Virus record (IMG/VR): IMGVR_UViG_3300028832_000096
Length of the DNA: 64,000 nt
Source: a virus
Taxonomy: Duplodnaviria > Caudoviricetes
Direction: 5' to 3' (one strand)
Below the pieces are notes generated by a model that saw only the letters and a list, made by a program, of their open reading frames with translations, had not been told where the DNA came from and searched no databases. Numbering within the stretch: position 1 is the first letter of the stretch; every line of letters starts with the position of its first letter. Positions 9,303 through 62,749 of the stretch are shown here, in pieces. Made by a program: the position numbers and the translations under genes.

Positions 9303-9521
9303 TTAATCGACAATCTCAGAACCATAGCCATCTACGACATCTTCCCAAGCTGTCGAACCATTCCATTCGACTTTAGAATACCGATGTGTTGTATTATGAG
9401 GATTTCCATCCTTATCATATTCCATAAGTATAAAATAATCACCTTCCTCTGAAAGCTCTATATGGCCTCCATCTTTAAGTGTCGCCTTGTAAGTTTTACT
9501 TGCTTTTATGTATCTCTTCAT
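9303..9521 (-). CDS. Hypothetical protein with MKRYIKAS leader
   Basis: 72-aa ORF with the shared N-terminal tag. Confidence 0.7.
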   Translation of the reverse strand: MKRYIKASKTYKATLKDGGHIELSEEGDYFILMEYDKDGNPHNTTHRYSKVEWNGSTAWEDVVDGYGSEIVD

Positions 9522-27338: not shown

Positions 27339-27767
27339 TTAACTATTTTCTAAATCGGCAAGTTGTGCCTTTGCTTCGTTGTCATTTCTCCAATCTGCGT
27401 AGCTACCTACATAGTAGAAACCGTCTGCTACTTCACAAGCCTGATTATCATGACACATGCCCTCTAAGGCACCAAGAATTGTATACATGTCAAAATCTTG
27501 TTCTTCAGATTCTTGTCCGAAATGAAGTGTATATGTATCAGAGAATCTATCAGGATAAGTGCTTTTGAGTAATTCTGCAACACTAGCTAAACTGAAAGGC
27601 TTTTCTTCATCTGCAATTCGCTTTGAGATAATCCAGCCAGTACATAATTCCTGAATAGCATCTCCGCAAAGTTCTTTCTCATCCTTGCCGAAGTACCACT
27701 GACGTGCATCGGATAACTTTGATGCTTTGACATAATTTGAAGGATATTTTGTATAAGTTCTTTTCAT
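27339..27767 (-). CDS. Hypothetical protein with YVKAS leader
   Basis: MKRTYTKYPSNYVKAS; has its own class A promoter at 27807-27812. Confidence 0.75.
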   Translation of the reverse strand: MKRTYTKYPSNYVKASKLSDARQWYFGKDEKELCGDAIQELCTGWIISKRIADEEKPFSLASVAELLKSTYPDRFSDTYTLHFGQESEEQDFDMYTILGALEGMCHDNQACEVADGFYYVGSYADWRNDNEAKAQLADLENS

Positions 27768-37025: not shown

Positions 37026-37292
37026 TCAAATACCCTCGTAATCAAAGATTTGAGTGATATCGTCATCAGAATAACCTAAATCGGAAAGTCGACGATATAT
37101 GTATGCTTTAGCATCATCCTTGTTCGGAAATAGTGCAATAGCTTCATCTTTTATAGAGTCAATTTTCTCTAATTCATCAGGATTGAAACTACAAGTAATG
37201 TCAGTGGCACTTGTAATTTCCTCATCAGACTTGAATTGGCTCATCCTTAATTTAAGTGCTGCTAAGAAATCAGATACATTATCATATATCAT
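37026..37292 (-). CDS. Hypothetical protein
   Basis: 88 aa; internal ITSA and ITCS motifs. Confidence 0.65.
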   Translation of the reverse strand: MIYDNVSDFLAALKLRMSQFKSDEEITSATDITCSFNPDELEKIDSIKDEAIALFPNKDDAKAYIYRRLSDLGYSDDDITQIFDYEGI

Positions 37293-37293
37293 A

Positions 37294-38949
37294 TTATTCT
37301 ACCTCGTATTCTTTACCTTCAGTAGTCTTTATCTTTACATAACCTTTGTTCTTCTTTATCAACTGAGGGCACTTCTTTTCATCGCAGATAAGTGTGCCTA
37401 TGTTATAGAACTCATAAGGTTCATCATCTTTTTCCCACTTGATGGTAATATTAGGACAATCATCAAATACAGATTCACCTAATGTTGTTTTAGGATAGAT
37501 AGTTACTGTACCTGCATAATCATTATCAGCAAATGAGTAGTTACCTAAATGAGCTCCGTTAGGATTAATGTCGATTGATTTTAAGAACTTGCAATTTCTA
37601 AATGCGTTACTACCAATTTGAACTGCGCTTCTTAAATCAATAGTTTCTAACTTAGAACCAGAGAAAGCACCGGCACCAATAACTGTTGCATTGTTTAAAT
37701 CAAAATTAGTGAAGAATGTTCCTTGGAATGCGTGTTTAGGAATCTTAGTAACGCCACCAGGAATCTTAATAGCTTTACCATCTTCACCTACACCGGCACC
37801 GTTAAATATCTTTACGCCGATACGAGTTACGCTATCAGGTAACTGTTCCTCTAATGAAGCGCAATCTTCAAAACATCCTTCAAGTACATTCTTGAGATTT
37901 GAACTGTGCTTGATGTGCTTAAGGTTTTCGCAACTAGCGAATGCATATTCTGAATAAGTAACGACGCTATCAGGAATTTCAATAGACTCTAAAGAAGTGC
38001 AGTTCCAAAAAGCCCTTCTAGGAATTGATGTGATTGTATTAGGAAGCTTGACAGATTTCAAATTAATGCAGTTATAGAATATCTCATTGCGCAATTTTGT
38101 AAGGCTGTCAGGAAGTACAATCTTTTCAACAGATTGAGGGAATTTTGCTTCAGGCAAAGCAGTCATTTCATCAGGAACTATAATTTCTGTAGCATCATCT
38201 GCAAAGCCCAAAACAGTCGATGCTCTATACTGAATTCCGTTTTCAGTCTTAAGCTCAAAGAACTTAGAAATAGCAGGATGTTCTTCGCAGAACTTATAAA
38301 AAGCATCCATGCCCTGAGAGTCATCATGTATGTCGTACCAAGAGTTACTCTCAAAATGTAATTGATACTTCTCGTTATAATCAGAAGTATTGATAAAGAC
38401 ATAGAGAGGGCCCTTGCGGGTGTAACTATTATAGTAATAAGGGTCACCTTCGTATGCTGTGCACCAAGTGGCCTTTGTTCCACCTACACGAGCAAGTGAA
38501 ACAGAACCAGGATAAGTAAGAGGAGTCCAAACTTCCCAAGGGCCGTCCTCAACTAAGAATTTTTTATCAACGTCACTTGCATGATGTGCTTGTTTCTTAA
38601 GCAGCTTAGCTTTTTCTTTTTCAGTAAGTTCTCTGTTACCTACTGCTTCAGTATCTGTTAAGAACTCATCTACTGTTTTATATTGGTTAAGGTCATTCTT
38701 AGGATATATCTTGTAATTCTGCAAGAAATAACCTAATGCATCTTTTACATTAGTATACTGTTCCTTAGTAAGATTGCCTTTCTTAATTTGTCGAAATAAC
38801 CAAGGACAATATTTACCTCCCTTGCCTGCTTCAAAATTAGCAGAAGGGTCTAATTCAACAACTTCCTGAAATTCAGAATCTTCTAAATCCGGAGCATCTT
38901 GCTCTTTGAGTTGTTGCAGTGTCTTTGCGGCTCTGATGTAAAATTTCAT
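37294..38949 (-). CDS. BspA-type leucine-rich repeat protein with N-terminal WCT domain and MKFYIRAA leader
   Basis: LPxxxTxIxxxAFxxCxxLxxIxIP repeats (LRR_5); ATWCTA motif. Confidence 0.85.
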   Translation of the reverse strand: MKFYIRAAKTLQQLKEQDAPDLEDSEFQEVVELDPSANFEAGKGGKYCPWLFRQIKKGNLTKEQYTNVKDALGYFLQNYKIYPKNDLNQYKTVDEFLTDTEAVGNRELTEKEKAKLLKKQAHHASDVDKKFLVEDGPWEVWTPLTYPGSVSLARVGGTKATWCTAYEGDPYYYNSYTRKGPLYVFINTSDYNEKYQLHFESNSWYDIHDDSQGMDAFYKFCEEHPAISKFFELKTENGIQYRASTVLGFADDATEIIVPDEMTALPEAKFPQSVEKIVLPDSLTKLRNEIFYNCINLKSVKLPNTITSIPRRAFWNCTSLESIEIPDSVVTYSEYAFASCENLKHIKHSSNLKNVLEGCFEDCASLEEQLPDSVTRIGVKIFNGAGVGEDGKAIKIPGGVTKIPKHAFQGTFFTNFDLNNATVIGAGAFSGSKLETIDLRSAVQIGSNAFRNCKFLKSIDINPNGAHLGNYSFADNDYAGTVTIYPKTTLGESVFDDCPNITIKWEKDDEPYEFYNIGTLICDEKKCPQLIKKNKGYVKIKTTEGKEYEVE

Positions 38950-42596: not shown

Positions 42597-42917
42597 TTAT
42601 GTCCAAGCAGCAGCATCATCAGCATGCACAATTTCTAATGCATTCATAATATCATCAAACAATTTATCTGCTTCTTCAACGGATAAATCGTCCCAATCTT
42701 CGGCTGCTTGACATTTATAATCTCTGATAACACTAGATACTCTTCCGCCTACAGGAGATTCTCCGTGGTAATCAAATTTACCATACTCCTTGTTAACTTC
42801 TCTTAAACAAGAACTAACTAAGTCGTATTTATCATGGTCAATAGTAGATAAGAATCTCTGTGCTTCTTTAATCTTGTCAAAATCAGGCCACTTGTTAGAT
42901 TTAATATACATTTTCAT
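42597..42917 (-). CDS. Hypothetical protein with MKMYIKSN leader
   Basis: ORF with the tag. Confidence 0.7.
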   Translation of the reverse strand: MKMYIKSNKWPDFDKIKEAQRFLSTIDHDKYDLVSSCLREVNKEYGKFDYHGESPVGGRVSSVIRDYKCQAAEDWDDLSVEEADKLFDDIMNALEIVHADDAAAWT

Positions 42918-43374: not shown

Positions 43375-43641
43375 TTACTCCCAACTAATGTATGCAACAT
43401 TATTTTCAATTGCAGTACCAAGCTCATAAGAAATTGTATAGCCTTGACCCTCTAATGTAGTTTTTACAGAATCAAGTATCGTGCCAGTGTAAGCTACTTT
43501 ATACTGTCCGCAATTTGCAGCTGTATTGATAAGATATGCAATAGCTTGTGTTTGCTGGTCTACTTCTGCTGTGTTTGCTGTTGTCTTTACAGCTGATGCA
43601 GCTTTTAATGTTTGGAGTTCGTCCATTGGAATAAGTGCCAT
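43375..43641 (-). CDS. Hypothetical protein
   Basis: ORF with AAGGAG RBS. Confidence 0.7.
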   Translation of the reverse strand: MALIPMDELQTLKAASAVKTTANTAEVDQQTQAIAYLINTAANCGQYKVAYTGTILDSVKTTLEGQGYTISYELGTAIENNVAYISWE

Positions 43642-43672: not shown

Positions 43673-44794
43673 TTACAGATACATGAAAAGTTCTGCACCG
43701 CCATCTTTTGCTAAATCATCAAACCAATTATCCGGAGAAAAATCGCAGATAACTCCATCTGTAAGATTACGAACTCTAATGAAATATCCTTTGTTGGCAT
43801 ACTCATTTATGGTTTCATTAAGTGCAGATATATCAGAAGTTTCATAAGATTCTGCTAAACCTCTAAGCTGTTCATCGTAGTAACCTTCAACGAGGAAATC
43901 ATCATTTAACTCAGGGTCAGAAGAACCATTTACCATATTAGCGAAGTACTTTGTATCAGTTGAACAGTTAACATCTCCGCAAGCATCAACTGAATTATCT
44001 TCAACCCAGAAATCCTTGCCGTAAACAGCATCTACAGGAGTATATCTTCCGCTGAACTCCCAAGAAAGCAATCTATTATCAGGAGTTACTATATAGGAAG
44101 TCCACCAATTACCTGAACCGGATTTAGGTTCAAATACATCACCTTCTCCGGATGTATAGTGGAATTCATAACTATCACCATCTTTAAAGACTAATTTCTT
44201 ATCAGGAATAGTGTAACTGGAAGCCTTGATGTCGTCACAAGCATCTACTCCAAAAACTCTATTATAAAGTGCTTCAAACTCCTCTGAAGTCATTTCTTCA
44301 TCATAGATTGCAAGAAGTTCTTCGGCTGTTGCTTTCTCAGTAATTTCTTCTGCATCACAGAAATCAAGATTCATATACTTATCGTTGTCTTCAAGCATAT
44401 CTAAAACATTTCTCTGAAGGACTTTTCTAGATAATACTTTTGTTCCATCAGGTTTTGTGGTATAACTTTCGCCATTATATCTGCTGAAATGATAAGTCTT
44501 TGATGCTTTGATATCTCCACAAGCTTCGACATCTTCGCAAGGAACAACATCTCCGTCCTTCTGGCAGTAACCTATCTGGTCAAGATACCTGTTGATTTCT
44601 GTCTCAGAAGGAATATCATACTGCTTGAGCTCATCTGCAGTTAAGAACCTATCAAGCCAAACCGCTGTGTAGTAGTTGGGCAAGTCCTTAGACCTAATAA
44701 CATTTACATCTTTTGGAAGTGTTCCAGGGCCAACACCATGCTTAAAAATGTAGAGATAACCATTATTTGAACTTGATTTAATATAAACTTTCAT
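43673..44794 (-). CDS. Multi-module acidic protein (putative polyprotein) with a DarA C-terminal-like first domain
   Basis: MKVYIKSS leader; GPGTLPK...RFLTADELKQYDI; three V[ED]AC[GD]D[IV]x[AC]S linkers. Confidence 0.7.
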   Translation of the reverse strand: MKVYIKSSSNNGYLYIFKHGVGPGTLPKDVNVIRSKDLPNYYTAVWLDRFLTADELKQYDIPSETEINRYLDQIGYCQKDGDVVPCEDVEACGDIKASKTYHFSRYNGESYTTKPDGTKVLSRKVLQRNVLDMLEDNDKYMNLDFCDAEEITEKATAEELLAIYDEEMTSEEFEALYNRVFGVDACDDIKASSYTIPDKKLVFKDGDSYEFHYTSGEGDVFEPKSGSGNWWTSYIVTPDNRLLSWEFSGRYTPVDAVYGKDFWVEDNSVDACGDVNCSTDTKYFANMVNGSSDPELNDDFLVEGYYDEQLRGLAESYETSDISALNETINEYANKGYFIRVRNLTDGVICDFSPDNWFDDLAKDGGAELFMYL

Positions 44795-44863
44795 AGGGAG
44801 TTCTCCTGTAAAATGTATTCTCTAATATAAAAGGTTAGTGTTGTTAACAATGAAAAAATAAAA

Positions 44864-44889
44864 GCAAGCAAGTATATATTCTTGCTTGC
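44864..44889 (-). terminator. Intrinsic terminator
   Basis: GCAAGCAAG/CTTGCTTGC stem plus T-run. Confidence 0.75.
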
Positions 44890-44915
44890 CTGTAGTGCAA
44901 TTTATCAAGTTGTTG

Positions 44916-48075: not shown

Positions 48076-49752
48076 ATGCCCACAGGAATACCAGAAAAAC
48101 TCAAGCCATGTAAGATATGTAAAGAAATGTTTTTACCTGCAACTCCATCACAAAAGATATGCAAGAACTCACACTATGCGAATTGTCCAATATGCAATAA
48201 ACCTATGTTATGGAATACTACTAGAGCACCTGAACCTTGCTCCAAAGAATGTCGAAAAGAAAAAACAAGAAAATTCTATCAAGAAAAGTACAATGTAGAC
48301 CATCCAATGAAAAATGCAGAAGTTAAAAAACATTTCCAGGAAGCTATGAAAAAGAAATATGGTAATGAACATGCTTTACAATGCAAAAAATTTAAAAATA
48401 AAGCTATAGAAACGAACCGAAAGAAATTCGGAACAGATTGGGCATTGAGCAACAAAAATGTTCAAGATAAAAGAAAACAGACGATGTTAGATAGATATGG
48501 AGTTGAATGCCCTTTCAATATGAAAGACTATCAAGAAAAAGTTAAAACAACCTCTAATAAAAAATATGGTGTAGACCATCCATCTAAATCAGAATCGGTT
48601 AGAGAAAATATGAAGCGAGGTATGTTAGATAGATATGGAGTTGAATTTCCATCTCAAAACAAAGAAATATTAAGTAAAATGCAAGCAAAAAGGGCTGCTC
48701 ATATGGATGAGATTGTAGAAAATATTAGGGCAAGCTTTATACAAAAATATGGAGTACCTAATTGTTTTCAATCAGAAGATATCAAAGAAAAAATTGTTAA
48801 AACATGCATAGACAAATATGGATTTCCAAGTGCAATGCAAAGTGAAGAAGTTAAGAAGAAAGTATCTCAAACGATACGGGAAAGATATGGTGTTAATTGG
48901 TTTGTTCAATCTGAAAAATATCTAGATGCGCATTCGTATATATCTAAAGTAGCGCAACAATTTGCTAATAGATTAATTAGCCGAAACATACCTATATCAT
49001 ATGAATTTCCGTTAGATTCTTATAGATATGATATAAAACTAAATAATACACTAGTAGAAATTGACCCAACATACACTCATAGCATCTTAGAAAATCACTG
49101 GGGTCCAGGTTTAGATAAAGATTATCATAAAAATAAAACCGATGTAGCAAATCAAGCTAGTTTCAAGTGTGTCCATGTATTTAGTTGGGACTGCCAAGGA
49201 AAGATTATAAACATACTTAATCCTAACAAGATATGTGTAGATGATAGTGAATTACAAATATACGTGCTCAACAAAGCAGCAGCTACTAGATTTCTCAACA
49301 ATTACTCAATCCAAGGTAATTATAATAAATCAGCATATTACATAGGGCTAGTTAAAGATGATATTATTTATCAATTGGTAGCAATAGGTAAATCTAGATA
49401 TAATTCTGAATACTATGCCGAAATAACTAGATGGCAAACAAACCCTAACTACAAAATATCTAATGGATATTCTAAGATATTAAACTTTATACAATCAGAT
49501 GAATTCTTATCAGTTAAAAATGTAGTGTTGTACTATGATAAATCTAAACAATTCGAGGACGACATTACGACAAACATGGAGTATGTTCATGATAATCCTC
49601 CAATAATGATATGGTCTGACCAAGGAAACAAATTTATAACAGATAGAATATTTAAACAATATGGATATAAAGGAATTACTAATGAATTAGATATGATAAA
49701 AATGGGTTGGCGTCCTGTATATAACTGCGGATACAGTGTTTATAAGATTTAA
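48076..49752 (+). CDS. Free-standing putative homing endonuclease (Zn fingers + 9 KYG repeats + PD-(D/E)XK/Vsr-like + C-terminal domain)
   Basis: CKIC, CPIC and CSKEC; ~23-aa (K/R)YGV..P repeats; YDIKL...VEID...YHKNK...VHVF.WD; GGAGG RBS; the only long + strand gene. Confidence 0.75.
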   Translation: MPTGIPEKLKPCKICKEMFLPATPSQKICKNSHYANCPICNKPMLWNTTRAPEPCSKECRKEKTRKFYQEKYNVDHPMKNAEVKKHFQEAMKKKYGNEHALQCKKFKNKAIETNRKKFGTDWALSNKNVQDKRKQTMLDRYGVECPFNMKDYQEKVKTTSNKKYGVDHPSKSESVRENMKRGMLDRYGVEFPSQNKEILSKMQAKRAAHMDEIVENIRASFIQKYGVPNCFQSEDIKEKIVKTCIDKYGFPSAMQSEEVKKKVSQTIRERYGVNWFVQSEKYLDAHSYISKVAQQFANRLISRNIPISYEFPLDSYRYDIKLNNTLVEIDPTYTHSILENHWGPGLDKDYHKNKTDVANQASFKCVHVFSWDCQGKIINILNPNKICVDDSELQIYVLNKAAATRFLNNYSIQGNYNKSAYYIGLVKDDIIYQLVAIGKSRYNSEYYAEITRWQTNPNYKISNGYSKILNFIQSDEFLSVKNVVLYYDKSKQFEDDITTNMEYVHDNPPIMIWSDQGNKFITDRIFKQYGYKGITNELDMIKMGWRPVYNCGYSVYKI

Positions 49753-53323: not shown

Positions 53324-54850
53324 TTACATCATACCTCCACCCATTCCGCCTTCTTCACCGCTCTTTAAATCAACACCCCATTTCATTACATTGGAGCCGG
53401 TTTGAGGTAAGGACTGTGACAAGATTTCAGTTATTGCTTTCTTATATGCTTCAGGGTCATTGATACCTAAGTTCTTCATAAGGTCAGATATTGATGCAGC
53501 TTGATTGATGGAAGAATCACGCTTATCAAACTGTACCTGGTCCATATTAGTGATAATAGGGCTCATGTTGAGAACAAATTTATCAACGAAACCACTCATG
53601 TTTCTAGACAAGAAATACTTATTAAGTGCATCTCTCCAGCCGTTCTTATAAGCGGTTTCAATTCTTAATAAGTGGTTAGCATAAAGAGCAGACCTCTGTG
53701 ACATTACTGCGCCTGCTCCGCCTAATCCTTCAGCAGATGAGAAGTTCATTGCTTCCTTAGGAACACCAAGAACAGATAACTTCTTATCCTGATAATAGTT
53801 AAGAAGTTTGTTCTCACTTTCGGTAGGCTCACCCATGTTGAGGTCTGTAATAGAAACTGCGTCCTGACCGTTTACCTTTGCAAGATAAATCAAGTTATTA
53901 GGGCTCTGTGGATTGACGAAGCTCTCCGCATTACCTGTAGCAGTATTGAGTGCTAACTGCTGCTCAATCATGTCCTTGATTACCTGTAAATTCTGCCTGA
54001 TTTCATCTTCCTCTGTAGTCGTACCACAATCTACATTGACGAATCTGACAGTACGAGTAAGTGATGAAAGCAACATTGCATCTTCAAGAAGGCTTAATGT
54101 TTGTGTAGGCTGTACTGCTTGCGACAAAATAGGTTCAGCGAACTGAATATCATAATCAACAGATTCACCTTTAGAGTTAACACCTGAAATATGATACTTA
54201 CCTAACAAGCCTCCTAATGAGAAATGAATAACAGATGATTCAGGATAACTAATAATCGTATCGCCTGAAAATGACGCAGAATTAGGGTCAGATGACGCCT
54301 GATAGATATAGCCCTGAGGTTTTCCTTGATACCATAAATGAACAATGTCTTCGGGTGGTATCATATAAGACGGGATAATATCATAATCGAGATTAAGTAA
54401 TGTGTTATCGTCTAGCGAAACTAATTCTCTATTTTGATGTACTCCAGGGCCTCTATAAATTTCTGTTGTAGGAATATAGACCTGACCAATTGTTGCTAAT
54501 TCAAGAATATGGTCTCTTGCGTAGTCATTTACCTTCCAACGCTTAAAACACTGATTGATAATGTCAGCTACCTGCTGTAAATCTTCAGATACAGCAGTAG
54601 CCCAGATAACATCACCACCTGTATTAGGCGTTGTAGCATCTGTTGCATAATATGATAATGCGGTGCTTATTTGAGAATCTCTTGCAAGTGCACGCATTAC
54701 ATTTATTTGTGTTCTAATATCTTCAATATCAGAATCTCCGCGAAGGTCTGATATCTTATAGAAAGTACCACCTACACATACAGTACTTCTTAATCTAGAT
54801 ATTGTATTGCCTTTACGGGGTCCAAATAATCTGTCTAACCATCGAGCCAT
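53324..54850 (-). CDS. Portal protein (T4 gp20-like)
   Basis: DSQISTALSYYATDAT, LLEDAMLL..LTR..RFVNVD.G and LGVPK; lies downstream of TerL. Confidence 0.85.
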   Translation of the reverse strand: MARWLDRLFGPRKGNTISRLRSTVCVGGTFYKISDLRGDSDIEDIRTQINVMRALARDSQISTALSYYATDATTPNTGGDVIWATAVSEDLQQVADIINQCFKRWKVNDYARDHILELATIGQVYIPTTEIYRGPGVHQNRELVSLDDNTLLNLDYDIIPSYMIPPEDIVHLWYQGKPQGYIYQASSDPNSASFSGDTIISYPESSVIHFSLGGLLGKYHISGVNSKGESVDYDIQFAEPILSQAVQPTQTLSLLEDAMLLSSLTRTVRFVNVDCGTTTEEDEIRQNLQVIKDMIEQQLALNTATGNAESFVNPQSPNNLIYLAKVNGQDAVSITDLNMGEPTESENKLLNYYQDKKLSVLGVPKEAMNFSSAEGLGGAGAVMSQRSALYANHLLRIETAYKNGWRDALNKYFLSRNMSGFVDKFVLNMSPIITNMDQVQFDKRDSSINQAASISDLMKNLGINDPEAYKKAITEILSQSLPQTGSNVMKWGVDLKSGEEGGMGGGMM

Positions 54851-56495: not shown

Positions 56496-58934
56496 TTAAA
56501 ACTTTCTGTATTGATTACCAAATCCAGGTAATGGCGATTTTATTCCTGAACCAAACCTATTTGGTATGCCATAATTGTTACCAGTATTTACTGATGCAAT
56601 TGCATTGATTACACTCTTAGCAGGAGGTTTAACTAAATCTAAATGAGCAATTAGCGTAGAACATGCTCCGCATAAAGCATCGGCACAGTCTTTACCTATT
56701 CCTTTTGAGTTATATCCATTTTCCAATTTTGGTAATTCTGTTAATGAATTACTTTGTGCAGGGTGGTCGACACGGTCGCCATTTCTTTGCAAATTAATTA
56801 ACTCAATTTCTTGCAAATCGCATTTTACTAATTCTAATCTTTGGTCTTGCAATAAGTTCCTTAATGAGATGTAGGGGTCAATAGTTCTATCAACAGATAC
56901 CTTTTCTGTATCAAAACCTTGTTGGTCTAAATTCTCTCTAACATAAGATGATTGATACTGGTCGGTTGAGATTATGCCTAAAGCAAAACCGCTGCGTCTT
57001 AACCAGAGAATGAAATTGATAACTTTCTGGAAAGACATTCTATCGCCTCTAGGTGCTCCGATAGCAACTTGAAATATCTGTCTAAAGAAAGGCATAAGGA
57101 CTTTTTTATTTGTTTCCAAATCTACAATAGTTTTATTGCCATCAACCACTACTCCAGATATTCCTATATGGTCTGACTTCTCAGCGAAGTCGATATGGAT
57201 GTTCATAGGTAAAGCTCGCAAATTAGCTGGAACTACTTCTGGATGGAAATGACGCTCTATTGTATCATTGTCTCTCAAACCTATCTCATAGTAATCTTCA
57301 AAGAAAGGATTTACTCTAGTTTCAGAAACATTAGGAGTTATCATATCTTGTGTGATAAATCCCATTGCACCTACTACGGAAATACCTGCAATGTCTCTTA
57401 AAGCGATATCATAGTCGGCTTTGAAGTTTGGTTTATAATCTGCAGGTACTTCTAAGACCTTGTAGCCTTCTGTTCGATACTCTTGCAGATGCTGTTCATC
57501 AGAATTTTCATCAGGTACTACAAAACCTCTCTTATATCTGTCGCCTACAGTAATATAAAACTTTTCTGTGCCGAAACGATAAGATGGCAATACTTCCCAC
57601 TGAGGTTTGTCAAACAAATACATGTGAGTATTACCTGAATCAATCTGCTTTTCAATATGGTCTGAAAGATAATCGTTATCACTGTTCTTAGAAGAACAAG
57701 TAAACATCTTTCCATATATTTTACCATTGAGTTTGAATGTACCTGTGATACGAGCATTCGCTGTATCATATATGTGCTTCATGTGGGACTTAGATATCGA
57801 AATATCTTTTACACCTGCTCGAGAAAAATTTACCTCATCTTGCAAAAGGCAGTTATGAGAAACAATATCACTATTATCTGTAGAGATTATAAAATTATGC
57901 AAATCTCCTGCATTGATTACATCATACACTGGAATAGGCTTGTCATAATGAATATGTTCTATTTTAGCAACCTTCATTAATAGACTTCCAAATGAAAATA
58001 CCTTATCACTCTCAGTCAATTCGTCTAATCTCTTGTATGTACCATCTGCAAGCATTACTCTATGCTCAGGAGTCCCTTCAAATACTGAACCGTCTTCTAA
58101 TGTTATCTTTATAGTATCGCTTGTATACTTTGTTAGCATAACCGGAGCAGTCGCATAACAGTAATTAGAAGCATTATAATCATACTGCAAAACATTAATG
58201 ACACTATTTGCTAATTCAGATATAGGAAATATTCCCTTATCAGTAACAATCTTAGTACTTCCTACTAAACACCAAAGCTGCATGCCGAGAACGTGAGCTG
58301 CATCGGAAGCAGTTACTAACTCAATCTTATCACCTTCAGGTATGTATACAGGATAGCGTGCATTTGTGAATCGGCCATGAGAATTAAACCAAGGAGACTT
58401 TTTGAGAGTGTCGTTATACTCTCTGAAAGCTACACCTTCTGCGAGGTCTTTAGTAAGGTTAGCAAATGCAATTGTTGCTCGGGATACTTCTTTCAGACCA
58501 AAATAAGCTTGAGGATTTCTATAACACATCAAGAGATATGTCATATAACACATCATTGAAACTGCGGTTGATGTTTTACCGATACGAGTAGCACCGGAAA
58601 GGATAACTTCGTACTTTTCTTCCTCAGAATTAAATACAGTATTGTATGCGTCCCACCAGCCTGGATATATTTGAGAACCTTTGCCGTTAGACTCACCTAG
58701 ATACTCAGGGTCACATAAGAACCTGTCAATACTAACAGGTACTTCCTTAAAGTCTATCAAGTAAACTTGCTCTAATGTTTGAGAATATCCTTTATCGCTG
58801 AGCTCTTCAACAATCTTGATTAATACAGCTTGCTCCATAGGAGTACAACTGCTGTATATATCCTTAATACGTACGATTATGTCTTCATAATCTAGAGCAT
58901 CACTGCGTATTGGCGTTTGTATTAGTTCCGTCAT
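56496..58934 (-). CDS. terL: Terminase large subunit containing an intein
   Basis: Walker A SGATRIGKT, Walker B LLQDE, SS coupling motif, nuclease HIDFA...D, DHP...KDCADA. Confidence 0.92.
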   Translation of the reverse strand: MTELIQTPIRSDALDYEDIIVRIKDIYSSCTPMEQAVLIKIVEELSDKGYSQTLEQVYLIDFKEVPVSIDRFLCDPEYLGESNGKGSQIYPGWWDAYNTVFNSEEEKYEVILSGATRIGKTSTAVSMMCYMTYLLMCYRNPQAYFGLKEVSRATIAFANLTKDLAEGVAFREYNDTLKKSPWFNSHGRFTNARYPVYIPEGDKIELVTASDAAHVLGMQLWCLVGSTKIVTDKGIFPISELANSVINVLQYDYNASNYCYATAPVMLTKYTSDTIKITLEDGSVFEGTPEHRVMLADGTYKRLDELTESDKVFSFGSLLMKVAKIEHIHYDKPIPVYDVINAGDLHNFIISTDNSDIVSHNCLLQDEVNFSRAGVKDISISKSHMKHIYDTANARITGTFKLNGKIYGKMFTCSSKNSDNDYLSDHIEKQIDSGNTHMYLFDKPQWEVLPSYRFGTEKFYITVGDRYKRGFVVPDENSDEQHLQEYRTEGYKVLEVPADYKPNFKADYDIALRDIAGISVVGAMGFITQDMITPNVSETRVNPFFEDYYEIGLRDNDTIERHFHPEVVPANLRALPMNIHIDFAEKSDHIGISGVVVDGNKTIVDLETNKKVLMPFFRQIFQVAIGAPRGDRMSFQKVINFILWLRRSGFALGIISTDQYQSSYVRENLDQQGFDTEKVSVDRTIDPYISLRNLLQDQRLELVKCDLQEIELINLQRNGDRVDHPAQSNSLTELPKLENGYNSKGIGKDCADALCGACSTLIAHLDLVKPPAKSVINAIASVNTGNNYGIPNRFGSGIKSPLPGFGNQYRKF
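57852..58271 (-). mobile_element. Mini-intein (140 aa, no endonuclease) in TerL
   Basis: Starts CLVGSTKI; block B TPEHRV; block F/G VYDV...HNF...VSHN, followed by the +1 Cys. Confidence 0.92.
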
Positions 58935-60030: not shown

Positions 60031-60210
60031 TTACTCCTGGCTGCCCATTAAGTCAAACATTACTACACTGAGATTTGCAATGTTATCTTTTGCGATTACA
60101 TCATCTTTATCACAAGTAGCAAGAATGTCGATTGCAGCTTTGATATGCTGCTGAGCGTCCTTATAGTTCTTTGACGCGTTGATTGTTTTCTTTGACTTCT
60201 TAATCTGCAT
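60031..60210 (-). CDS. Small protein (59 aa, not in the ORF track) with MQIKKSKKTINAS leader
   Basis: AGGAGG RBS; fills the gap between neighbours exactly. Confidence 0.7.
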   Translation of the reverse strand: MQIKKSKKTINASKNYKDAQQHIKAAIDILATCDKDDVIAKDNIANLSVVMFDLMGSQE

Positions 60211-61092: not shown

Positions 61093-61476
61093 TTAATAAT
61101 GTGACATCATTGGTTTAATATCCTTATTTAATCTTTGTAATTCAACTGCAACGGTATCTAATACAGCATCTACATATTCATAAGGAGTTTCATACATTTC
61201 GTCATCGTAGTCAGGGATTCTTCCTGTGCTAACTTCTTTACCTTTTTGAATATATCTTACCTGAAGCGGCTGTAAAGCTCCGATTTGTGCCCAAATATAA
61301 GGTGCTTCATCATAAGGGTGAATTTCAGATATTGTAGCTTTGAATTGGTCTAAATCCCCTAATTTATCGGCATCGACCATATGGCAACTAAACTTCTGTC
61401 TGCCCTGATTAAAAGATACATATTCGGTTAATTGCGAATTAAAATCCGAACTTGATTTAATATATCTTTTCATCAT
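61093..61476 (-). CDS. Hypothetical protein with (M)MKRYIKSS leader
   Basis: AAGGAGATATA RBS and the tag. Confidence 0.75.
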   Translation of the reverse strand: MMKRYIKSSSDFNSQLTEYVSFNQGRQKFSCHMVDADKLGDLDQFKATISEIHPYDEAPYIWAQIGALQPLQVRYIQKGKEVSTGRIPDYDDEMYETPYEYVDAVLDTVAVELQRLNKDIKPMMSHY

Positions 61477-62332: not shown

Positions 62333-62749
62333 TTATACCTCAGTATACTCAATACCTGCTGCATCAAGTGCGTCTAATCCGTCTTCAAGAAGCAGGATTC
62401 TATCCCACTCATCGTCATACTCATACCAACAACCAGCTTTATCAAGAACTTCAGCTACTTCGGTATAGTTATCAGGGGATATTCTATATACTGTAGCCAT
62501 CTCAGTATCATCGATATCTACATCTGCATTTGGAATTTCTGCAATGGCTTGCATGCGAGGACTAGCTTTAAGATAACCGTTTTCATCAAATTCGAAATTA
62601 TTGTAAGCAGCATAAGCTTCTAAAACATGCCAATCATTAGCGTAGTTATAATCGTTACGCCAAGCGAATTTGTTTAAGCTATTGAGAAAATTTGCAGTTT
62701 CAGCTATTGCGTTTTCCCAAGCGCTTGCGTATAAATCGTCAATCTTCAT
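62333..62749 (-). CDS. Acidic hypothetical protein (internal YLKAS)
   Basis: ORF with AAGGAGATATA RBS. Confidence 0.7.
   Translation of the reverse strand: MKIDDLYASAWENAIAETANFLNSLNKFAWRNDYNYANDWHVLEAYAAYNNFEFDENGYLKASPRMQAIAEIPNADVDIDDTEMATVYRISPDNYTEVAEVLDKAGCWYEYDDEWDRILLLEDGLDALDAAGIEYTEV

Follow-up and report, generated by a model that had tools for sequence, protein, structure and literature searches.

The window analysed here, a stretch of 64,000 nucleotides that belongs to the 79.8-kb virus record IMGVR_UViG_3300028832_000096 of a large uncultured phage, contains a gene whose product carries a short leader and, further inside, three stretches that resemble the end of this leader. 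This raises the question whether the protein is a precursor that is cut into several pieces and, if so, which enzyme would cut it and what the pieces would be for.

A minus-strand gene encodes four modules joined by double linkers

Translation of both strands revealed a single minus-strand ORF of 373 aa at 43673..44794 (P0001, pI 4.3), the plus strand being closed there, with a ribosome-binding site at 44803-44807. The identical protein is encoded on other contigs, the longest of which comprises 193.6 kb, and DNA of the gene is found in cattle-gut metagenomes, two of which contain it in full and may be its source; no RNA data set was among those listed. The protein starts with a basic leader (aa 1-8, 44771..44794), a candidate capsid-targeting propeptide, which ends in I-K-S/S (slashes indicate predicted cuts); a leader of the same type is present on about 20 of the 117 predicted genes of the record, which are otherwise unrelated. 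Continuing on the minus strand, module 1 (aa 9-88, 44531..44770), which contains a remote relative of DarA_C with its core at 44615-44752, is followed by linker 1 (aa 89-98, 44501..44530; V-E-A/C and I-K-A/S), the mostly helical module 2 (aa 99-182, 44249..44500), linker 2 (aa 183-192, 44219..44248; V-D-A/C and I-K-A/S), the all-beta module 3 (aa 193-268, 43991..44218), linker 3 (aa 269-278, 43961..43990; V-D-A/C and V-N-C/S) and module 4 (aa 279-373, 43676..43960), which is usually the last module. The leader and the linkers lie where a preliminary description of this DNA had placed them, and its division into four modules holds as well, although the modules, with 80, 84, 76 and 95 aa, are slightly smaller than the approximately 90 aa it had given.

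Each linker represents a double site of the form [IV]-x-[AS]-[CSA]-x-x-[IV]-x-[ACS]-[SA], i.e. two sites six residues apart. In 20,000 shuffles of the protein we obtained at most one double site (31 times) and never two, compared to three in the real protein, the motif having been chosen post hoc. Sites of this motif are almost confined to linkers, with a density of 0.26 per 100 aa inside modules. Four domains with disordered joints, which AlphaFold had been expected to show, are indeed what the model displays: the pLDDT drops below 50 at aa 1-9, 91-109, 183-195 and 269-292, the pTM is 0.30, module 1 reaches a pLDDT of about 85 and the alpha/beta core of module 4 (approximately aa 297-365) one of 93-97. 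Two short loops, which belong to modules 2 and 3, were likewise of low confidence. Cutting at the linkers would yield four pieces, which are all predicted to be acidic (pI 4.0-4.5) with a size of 9-11 kDa.

Relatives reshuffle a large pool of modules

We collected 120 relatives with the 373-aa protein as query and cut them at the linker profile. They combine at least 33 recurring module families into 79 different arrangements; the internal modules have a median length of 88 aa, and one module family was found in first, middle and last positions. What the relatives have in common with the query is mostly module 1 alone or modules 1 and 4, and these two flank the chain together in 77 of the 120 matches, a dominance at the ends that is partly a sampling effect of the query. 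In 111 of 128 distinct sequences the motif follows within 16 aa of the end of module 1, compared to about 3% expected, in a test that was anchored on the end of module 1 and not on the linker.

Module 1 is the most conserved module, with about 70-85% identity across the family, and a comparison of alleles indicates that the modules are under purifying selection. A close allele, P0002, is 96% identical and contains one extra module of 79 codons (237 bp), which is located at linker 1; both breakpoints of this indel fall inside a near-perfect 19-bp repeat made by two linkers. The allele with the extra module was also seen among contigs aligned to the gene, and no joint skipping modules 2 or 3 was seen among these contigs, which drop rare variants.

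Modules also occur as stand-alone genes. The check for stand-alone tagged versions, which had been proposed for all modules, was positive for modules 1, 3 and 4, which are mostly tagged as stand-alone genes, whereas the stand-alone homologs of module 2 lack the leader. The latter are found among small unknown genes, one of them two genes away from a DNA polymerase A gene on a 220-kb contig, which suggests, judged from the gene neighbourhood, that module 2 is a captured non-cargo gene. In one case, a stand-alone module 3 is located in a cluster of tagged genes, with an ART-PolyVal gene nearby. Among the 126 proteins that start with module 1, about 14 (about 11%) lack the leader; several of these have clear start signals. 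The earlier picture of several cargo proteins fused behind one tag is hence too simple as far as the tag is concerned, while the modular chain is borne out by the relatives and by AlphaFold. The polyprotein consists of four small domains, each evolving on its own, with a stereotyped double linker in between, and its relatives reshuffle a large module pool.

Two further proteins are of this kind. A 628-aa Glu-type polyprotein bearing module 1 is encoded in a tail-gene region (L090:6001-7887) and has basic spacers before its Glu sites. On the minus strand at L007:967-1632, a tagged protein of 221 aa with a linker-like stretch at aa 115-124 is probably a second, two-module polyprotein of the genome.

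Selection acts on the protein sequence of the linker

The linkers of close alleles differ by seven silent changes and one conservative change in 30 codons, and the modules by 35 silent and 15 other changes in 335 codons. Across loci, Ile and Val swap in the linkers, and the codons for Cys, Ser and the second Ala vary; codon identity is 0.62 in the linkers and 0.52 in module 1, i.e. silent sites vary about equally freely. The protein sequence of the linker is kept while silent sites change, and the linker is hence selected as protein. A strict reading of the linker as a DNA site was tested as well and is not supported: silent sites vary, and the one apparently fixed codon, GCT for one linker Ala in 33 of 36 cases, largely reflects a family-wide bias towards GCT before Cys (218 of 303). 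The repeated linker DNA can still serve recombination, as the P0002 indel shows.

We also considered an invariant linker Cys, as it would be expected for a lipobox or for self-cleavage. This candidate was rejected: the Cys came from the seed pattern, an unbiased count gave Cys 96, Ser 83, Ala 32 and Thr 13 times, and a search for a signal peptide or a Hint domain revealed neither.

Head protease and putative cleavage after Ala

The phage encodes head genes of the T4 type. A gp20-like portal is located at 53324..54850 on the minus strand (Portal_T4, 47 bits), and just beyond the upstream end of the window lie, likewise on the minus strand, a gp23-like capsid gene (L007:3805-5250; Gp23, 76 bits) with an Arg-rich propeptide carrying repeated Ala-type sites as well as a protease-scaffold gene (L007:5290-6783), of which about the first 170 aa form the protease domain. 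The protease passes the cut-off of Peptidase_S77 (27.7 bits, cut-off 27), the His/Ser/Asp residues of the gp21 triad are invariant, and a coiled-coil scaffold of about 330 aa is fused to it; a profile search did not retrieve the T4 gp21 structure. The nearest cultured capsid protein is 28% identical, and no homolog of the 373-aa protein was found in cultured relatives.

In T4, gp21 cleaves behind L/I-x-E; the enzyme is a homolog of the herpesvirus proteases (PMC9026906). This L/I-x-Glu motif is not matched here; the capsid junction, the protease release site, the leaders and the linkers all have [IV]-x-Ala or another small residue instead. In 39 capsid proteins of the family, the junction of the basic propeptide reads [IV]-x-[AG]/A-T-N-T, and motif density is 11-fold higher in the propeptides than in the mature capsid protein (4.0 vs 0.35 per 100 aa). 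Likewise, Ala-type enzymes have an [IVL]-A-A/[SAT]-type site directly after the protease domain and more Ala sites in the scaffold, where the motif reaches 2.0 per 100 aa compared to 0.7 in the protease domain.

Sister phages differ in a concerted manner. The capsid junction is x-x-E/A-T-N in L059, L170 and L173, and the site after the protease domain is x-x-E/S in the same three and in L169 and L172. On one contig (L088 with L169), a protease of the Glu type is accompanied by many genes with Glu-type leaders and by a module-1 protein whose leader is of the Glu type and whose sites behind the module are Glu. In distant module-1 proteins the internal sites track the type of the leader (30 Ala and 13 Glu vs 0 Ala and 16 Glu), for which a Fisher p of 6e-7 overstates independence, since probably one or few evolutionary events underlie the co-variation. 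The recurrence of the motif at the junctions of the capsid protein and of the protease-scaffold, together with the joint switch of all sites from Ala to Glu in the sisters, provides strong indirect support for cutting by the maturation protease, and we consider it probable that linkers and leader are cut by the prohead protease that the phage itself encodes, an enzyme of the T4 gp21 type which would be specific for Ala. Two Arg residues (positions 37 and 40) are kept in all five Glu-type proteases and lost in all 64 Ala-type ones, and 27 positions differ in this way; that the two Arg residues set the Glu specificity is a guess. In the Glu-type outgroup L059, the capsid gene is split into two ORFs (L059:9917-11762), probably by an intron, and L170 looks similar.

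Module 1 is a divergent relative of DarA_C

The preliminary description had likened module 1 by eye to the C-terminal domain of DarA. The likeness is real and remote: aa 15-60 match DarA_C (PF18789) with 13.2 bits and an E-value of 0.01, but the curated cut-off of 27 is missed. Among 105 homologs of module 1, 65 match DarA_C with an E-value of up to 0.01, the best one with 8.1e-6, whereas three other families were matched by one member each. When ten distant homologs were tested singly, nine scored 15-25 bits, all below the cut-off. Structure comparisons place DarA_C models at or close to the top, but the scores are weak: the top two matches of module 1 in BFVD are DarA_C models, but with E-values of 0.07-0.09 and TM-scores of 0.41-0.46, and in the Atlas search the comparison with DarA_C gave TM-scores of 0.50-0.55, although small ACT-like folds score alike; the best fold match was ACT/RRM-like with a Z-score of 4.3. 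DarA_N was not detected in the 373-aa protein by the Pfam search at an E-value of up to 1, and no Hdf, DdrA, DdrB or DarB was seen. By its sequence, module 1 is a divergent relative of DarA_C and not a member of the family by the curated test.

The roles listed for P1 DarA are the determination of head size and Dar incorporation (PMC9024508). An antirestriction role of module 1 is unsupported here in view of this listing and of the missed cut-off. The listing, together with the existence of leaderless proteins that start with module 1, suggests that module 1 itself may help loading, and a loading or head-assembly domain is more likely than an antirestriction effector.

Searches of Pfam, PHROGs and PDB sequences named none of the modules. 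In Pfam, no family scored above the cut-off for the 373-aa protein, nine recurring modules and 11 long relatives; no recognisable enzyme or inhibitor family was detected in any module searched, and neither an embedded MPTase nor a catalogued polyvalent domain was found above the cut-off. A YodL match (15 bits) spans a linker. Fold searches led only to common small folds; for module 4 the best match has a Z-score of 5.6 at an rmsd of 5.6, and the matches to T4 Dmd (Z 4.9) and AcrIF9 (Z 4.2) are within noise. Foldseek with the whole AlphaFold model returned nothing at an E-value of up to 0.001; these fold searches barely cover modules 2 and 3, which have few relatives and were folded only within the whole chain.

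Tagged genes and sites elsewhere in the window

The only other double site of the 79.8-kb record, which confirms the internal sites reported earlier for this gene, is located at aa 26-35 of an 88-aa protein (37026..37292, minus strand), for which a homolog search found none. In the two-part protein encoded at 62333..62749 (minus strand), the previously noted YLKAS (aa 59-63), with its L-K-A/S site at aa 60-63, lies where a homologous N-terminal module ends, and the boundary is evident from P0144, in which a full double linker starts there. The sequence IKASKTY is indeed common to linker 1 and aa 5-11 of the tagged 72-aa protein encoded at 9303..9521 (minus strand), but apart from these seven residues the two proteins are unrelated (E 0.08).

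Several stand-alone tagged genes on the minus strand correspond to modules of polyproteins. The homolog of the gene at 42597..42917 is the last module of P0041, P0043 and P0080, preceded by a double linker in P0041 and P0043; the homolog of 60031..60210 is placed after module 2 and a linker in P0123; nine of the proteins with module 1 contain the homolog of 61093..61476 as a module; and a stand-alone tagged gene at 27339 is likewise a module in the chains of relatives. A tagged protein of 551 aa with LRR_5 repeats is encoded at 37294-38949; aa 128-237 of this protein are found again at the start of the polyprotein P0112, as its first module.

A candidate late promoter precedes the gene

The element AACCTTTTATA is located at 44826..44836 on the minus strand, 42 nt 5' of the start codon of the polyprotein gene, and an identical copy precedes the portal gene. 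In a slightly relaxed form, AACCTT-[TG]-[TA]-AT-[AT], which was picked after inspection, it occurs six times in the window, compared to 0.64 expected, always on the coding minus strand (5108, 27259, 27802, 39654, 44826 and 54878) and upstream of genes including the portal gene, in five of the six cases at a distance of 30-55 nt. This form also precedes the protease gene in three close relatives, and a looser one precedes nine of 18 homologous polyprotein genes, compared to a background of 1.3%. We regard the element as a candidate late promoter that would be common to the polyprotein and portal genes. A terminator-like hairpin, found by a consensus scan, lies at 44862..44891 on the minus strand between the polyprotein gene and the upstream HTH gene.

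Evaluation of possible functions

The explanation that we prefer, and to which we assign a moderately high probability as a whole, is that of a late head-cargo polyprotein. The precursor would be made late in infection and would probably enter the prohead by means of its basic leader, of module 1 or of both. A gp21-type protease accepting Ala or another small residue instead of Glu at P1 would, as argued above with rather high confidence, cut the linkers and the leader. Two cuts per linker would drop the spacer and free the folded 9-11 kDa proteins, which would be small enough to exit via the portal with the DNA and to act early in infection; double cutting, portal exit and early action, taken together, are somewhat less certain than the preceding steps. 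The repeated linker DNA would provide short homologies for the gain and loss of modules, as is partly shown by the indel. For leader and gp21 processing T4 offers a precedent (PMC9026906). Against the cargo model counts that the protein's own leader ends in I-K-S/S and its last site is V-N-C/S, neither of which has Ala, and that the head proteins retained in T4 and SPN3US are trimmed of terminal propeptides, while cutting into many pieces is the fate of core proteins, which are then discarded (PMC9026906, PMC10052503). Since nearly all mapped cuts in SPN3US remove N-terminal propeptides (PMC10052503), the release of multiple cargo proteins from one chain is without direct precedent in the literature examined.

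Multiple internal cuts are the pattern of T4 core proteins (PMC9026906), and the protein could accordingly be a prohead-core or filler protein like T4 gp22, gp67 or gp68, which is packaged and cut, serves head assembly or size control and is expelled rather than injected. Pieces that are acidic throughout, unlike the basic internal proteins of T4, the strong conservation of module 1 and the role of P1 DarA as a listed head-size determinant (PMC9024508) would fit such a protein. However, the sites lie in linkers and hardly inside modules, the modules fold well in AlphaFold and are under purifying selection, their content varies freely between close relatives, homologs of module 2 are untagged and reside next to a DNA polymerase gene, and a true coiled-coil scaffold is encoded elsewhere, so that we judge a core function to be rather unlikely. 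Improbable as well is a chain that stays uncut like beads on a string, with the linkers being leader relics of gene fusion that were kept as flexible spacers or recombination joints. The breakpoints of the indel in the linker repeat, the prevalent GCT codon and the stand-alone tagged versions of modules are what one would expect in this case; but silent sites of the linkers vary about as freely as those of module 1 and, between close alleles, more than those of the modules, the GCT preference is family-wide, the internal sites turn to the Glu type along with the protease and the capsid site, the linkers keep the site and not the basic part of the leader, and exposed consensus sites in a prohead protein would be hard to spare.

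If instead the phage protease acted outside the head on a late cytoplasmic polyprotein, the leader would be a cut site and not an address. The leaderless versions agree with this, as does the finding that gp21 by itself, when expressed in cells, is active on a host protein (PMC12991175), whereas proteases of the T4 type work inside the prohead, their activity being limited by self-cleavage (PMC12991175, PMC9026906), the leader, which is basic with a site at its end, has the anatomy of T4 capsid targeting, and such a leader is found on about 20 unrelated genes; we consider cytoplasmic cutting very improbable. Hardly credible, finally, is a single integrated protein in which the motifs are due to chance or to a structural repeat: the joint flanking of the chain by modules 1 and 4, partly a bias of the query, speaks for it, but shuffling, stand-alone modules, the clean indel, disordered linkers and the low pTM have largely refuted it. 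Returning to the head-cargo polyprotein, its most far-reaching form would be an array of protein cassettes, in which the linker has two roles, as the site cut by a head protease whose specificity has shifted from Glu to Ala and as a DNA homology that adds or drops modules, including captured untagged genes, in which the DarA_C-like module 1 loads the chain even when it is leaderless, and in which virions deliver strain-specific sets of small acidic proteins for host takeover or counter-defence. This extended form is conceivable and, in our view, still doubtful.

Comparison with known systems and implications

The closest parallel is provided by T4 with IPI-III, Alt and gp21 (PMC9026906), which has the same gp20/gp21/gp23-type head genes, the same short basic leader with a hydrophobic-x-P1 end on unrelated small proteins and the same site at the capsid propeptide junction. 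In contrast to T4, P1 is Ala, Ser, Gly or Cys and not Glu, the protease is fused to a long scaffold, the sites recur as double linkers between folded modules that are shuffled combinatorially, and the cargo is acidic. Polyvalent proteins (Iyer et al. 2017, PMC5512222), for which delivery along with the DNA and proteolytic release have been proposed (PMC5512222), likewise combine unrelated domains in one chain with variable architecture and a DarA-related domain, and the ART-PolyVal gene near a stand-alone module 3 is a further likeness. The proteins described here are, however, small (200-900 aa), have no embedded MPTase or other peptidase, and their processing is predicted to occur in trans at a fixed linker. 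The system thus fails a defining test of both the T4 system (no Glu motif) and the polyvalent proteins (no embedded peptidase). With P1 DarA, a head protein believed to be processed (PMC9024508), the common part is only a domain of about 55 aa, to which module 1 is a remote relative in sequence and possibly in fold, and DarA_N is lacking.

Herpesvirus assemblin/UL26 (PMC4498786; fold family in PMC9026906) resembles the phage enzyme in the protease-scaffold fusion, the release site after the protease domain and the hydrophobic-x-Ala/Ser or -Ala/Thr sites; the pseudorabies protease, for instance, is a protease-scaffold fusion with the predicted sites YLQA-T and VQA-S (PMC4498786). The difference is that here only S77 and not S21 was matched, that the triad is His/Ser/Asp and not Ser-His-His, and that the substrates include the capsid propeptide and cargo. 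Because close sister phages are of the Glu type, the common Ala specificity is most simply explained as convergent. In SPN3US (gp245) and phiKZ (gp175), many head proteins are likewise cut by a gp21-like protease with a preference for Ser at P1' (PMC10052503), but the sites are A-x-E, long N-terminal propeptides are cut several times, and no release of several modules from one chain is reported. A literature search on phage polyproteins cut by head proteases, on Ala-specific prohead proteases and on the leader motif found no description, with most subscription journals lying outside the search.

If the chain is cut as predicted, the linker would represent a readable code for injected proteins and for the ends of small proteins in gut phages of about 200 kb, would point to dozens of candidate counter-defence modules without known family and would carry the "tag and trim" scheme of T4 over to true polyproteins that are processed in trans. 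A gp21-family protease that shares an Ala specificity with the herpesvirus enzymes would, if true, form a natural pair with its Glu-specific sisters for studying P1 specificity, and a DarA_C-like domain at the head of the chain offers a test of DarA_C as a capsid-loading domain. Some CBASS systems sense gp21 via its cut motif (PMC12991175), and it is a speculation that the switch from Glu to Ala could be an escape route from CBASS.

Additional observations in the genome

GATC is absent from both strands of the 79.8-kb record, compared to about 661 expected occurrences, which suggests strong avoidance of a GATC-cutting host enzyme; CATG is depleted (392 vs 588 expected). The large terminase (56496-58934) contains an intein-like stretch (Intein_splicing, E 6e-6, below the cut-off). 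The sole long plus-strand ORF (48076-49752, 558 aa) lies in a low-GC stretch with reversed skew and looks like a mobile insertion; in the matching region the close relative L006 has a different opposite-strand gene of 270 aa. L006 also has a NUMOD3 homing-endonuclease-like gene (L006:8483-9466) that is missing from the corresponding place in the window. Close to the polyprotein gene, and in many relatives as well, a conserved 88-aa gene is found (43375-43641, 39-99% identity), which has an L-K-A-A-S site near its start, belongs to no known family and is possibly a partner of the polyprotein or a head component.
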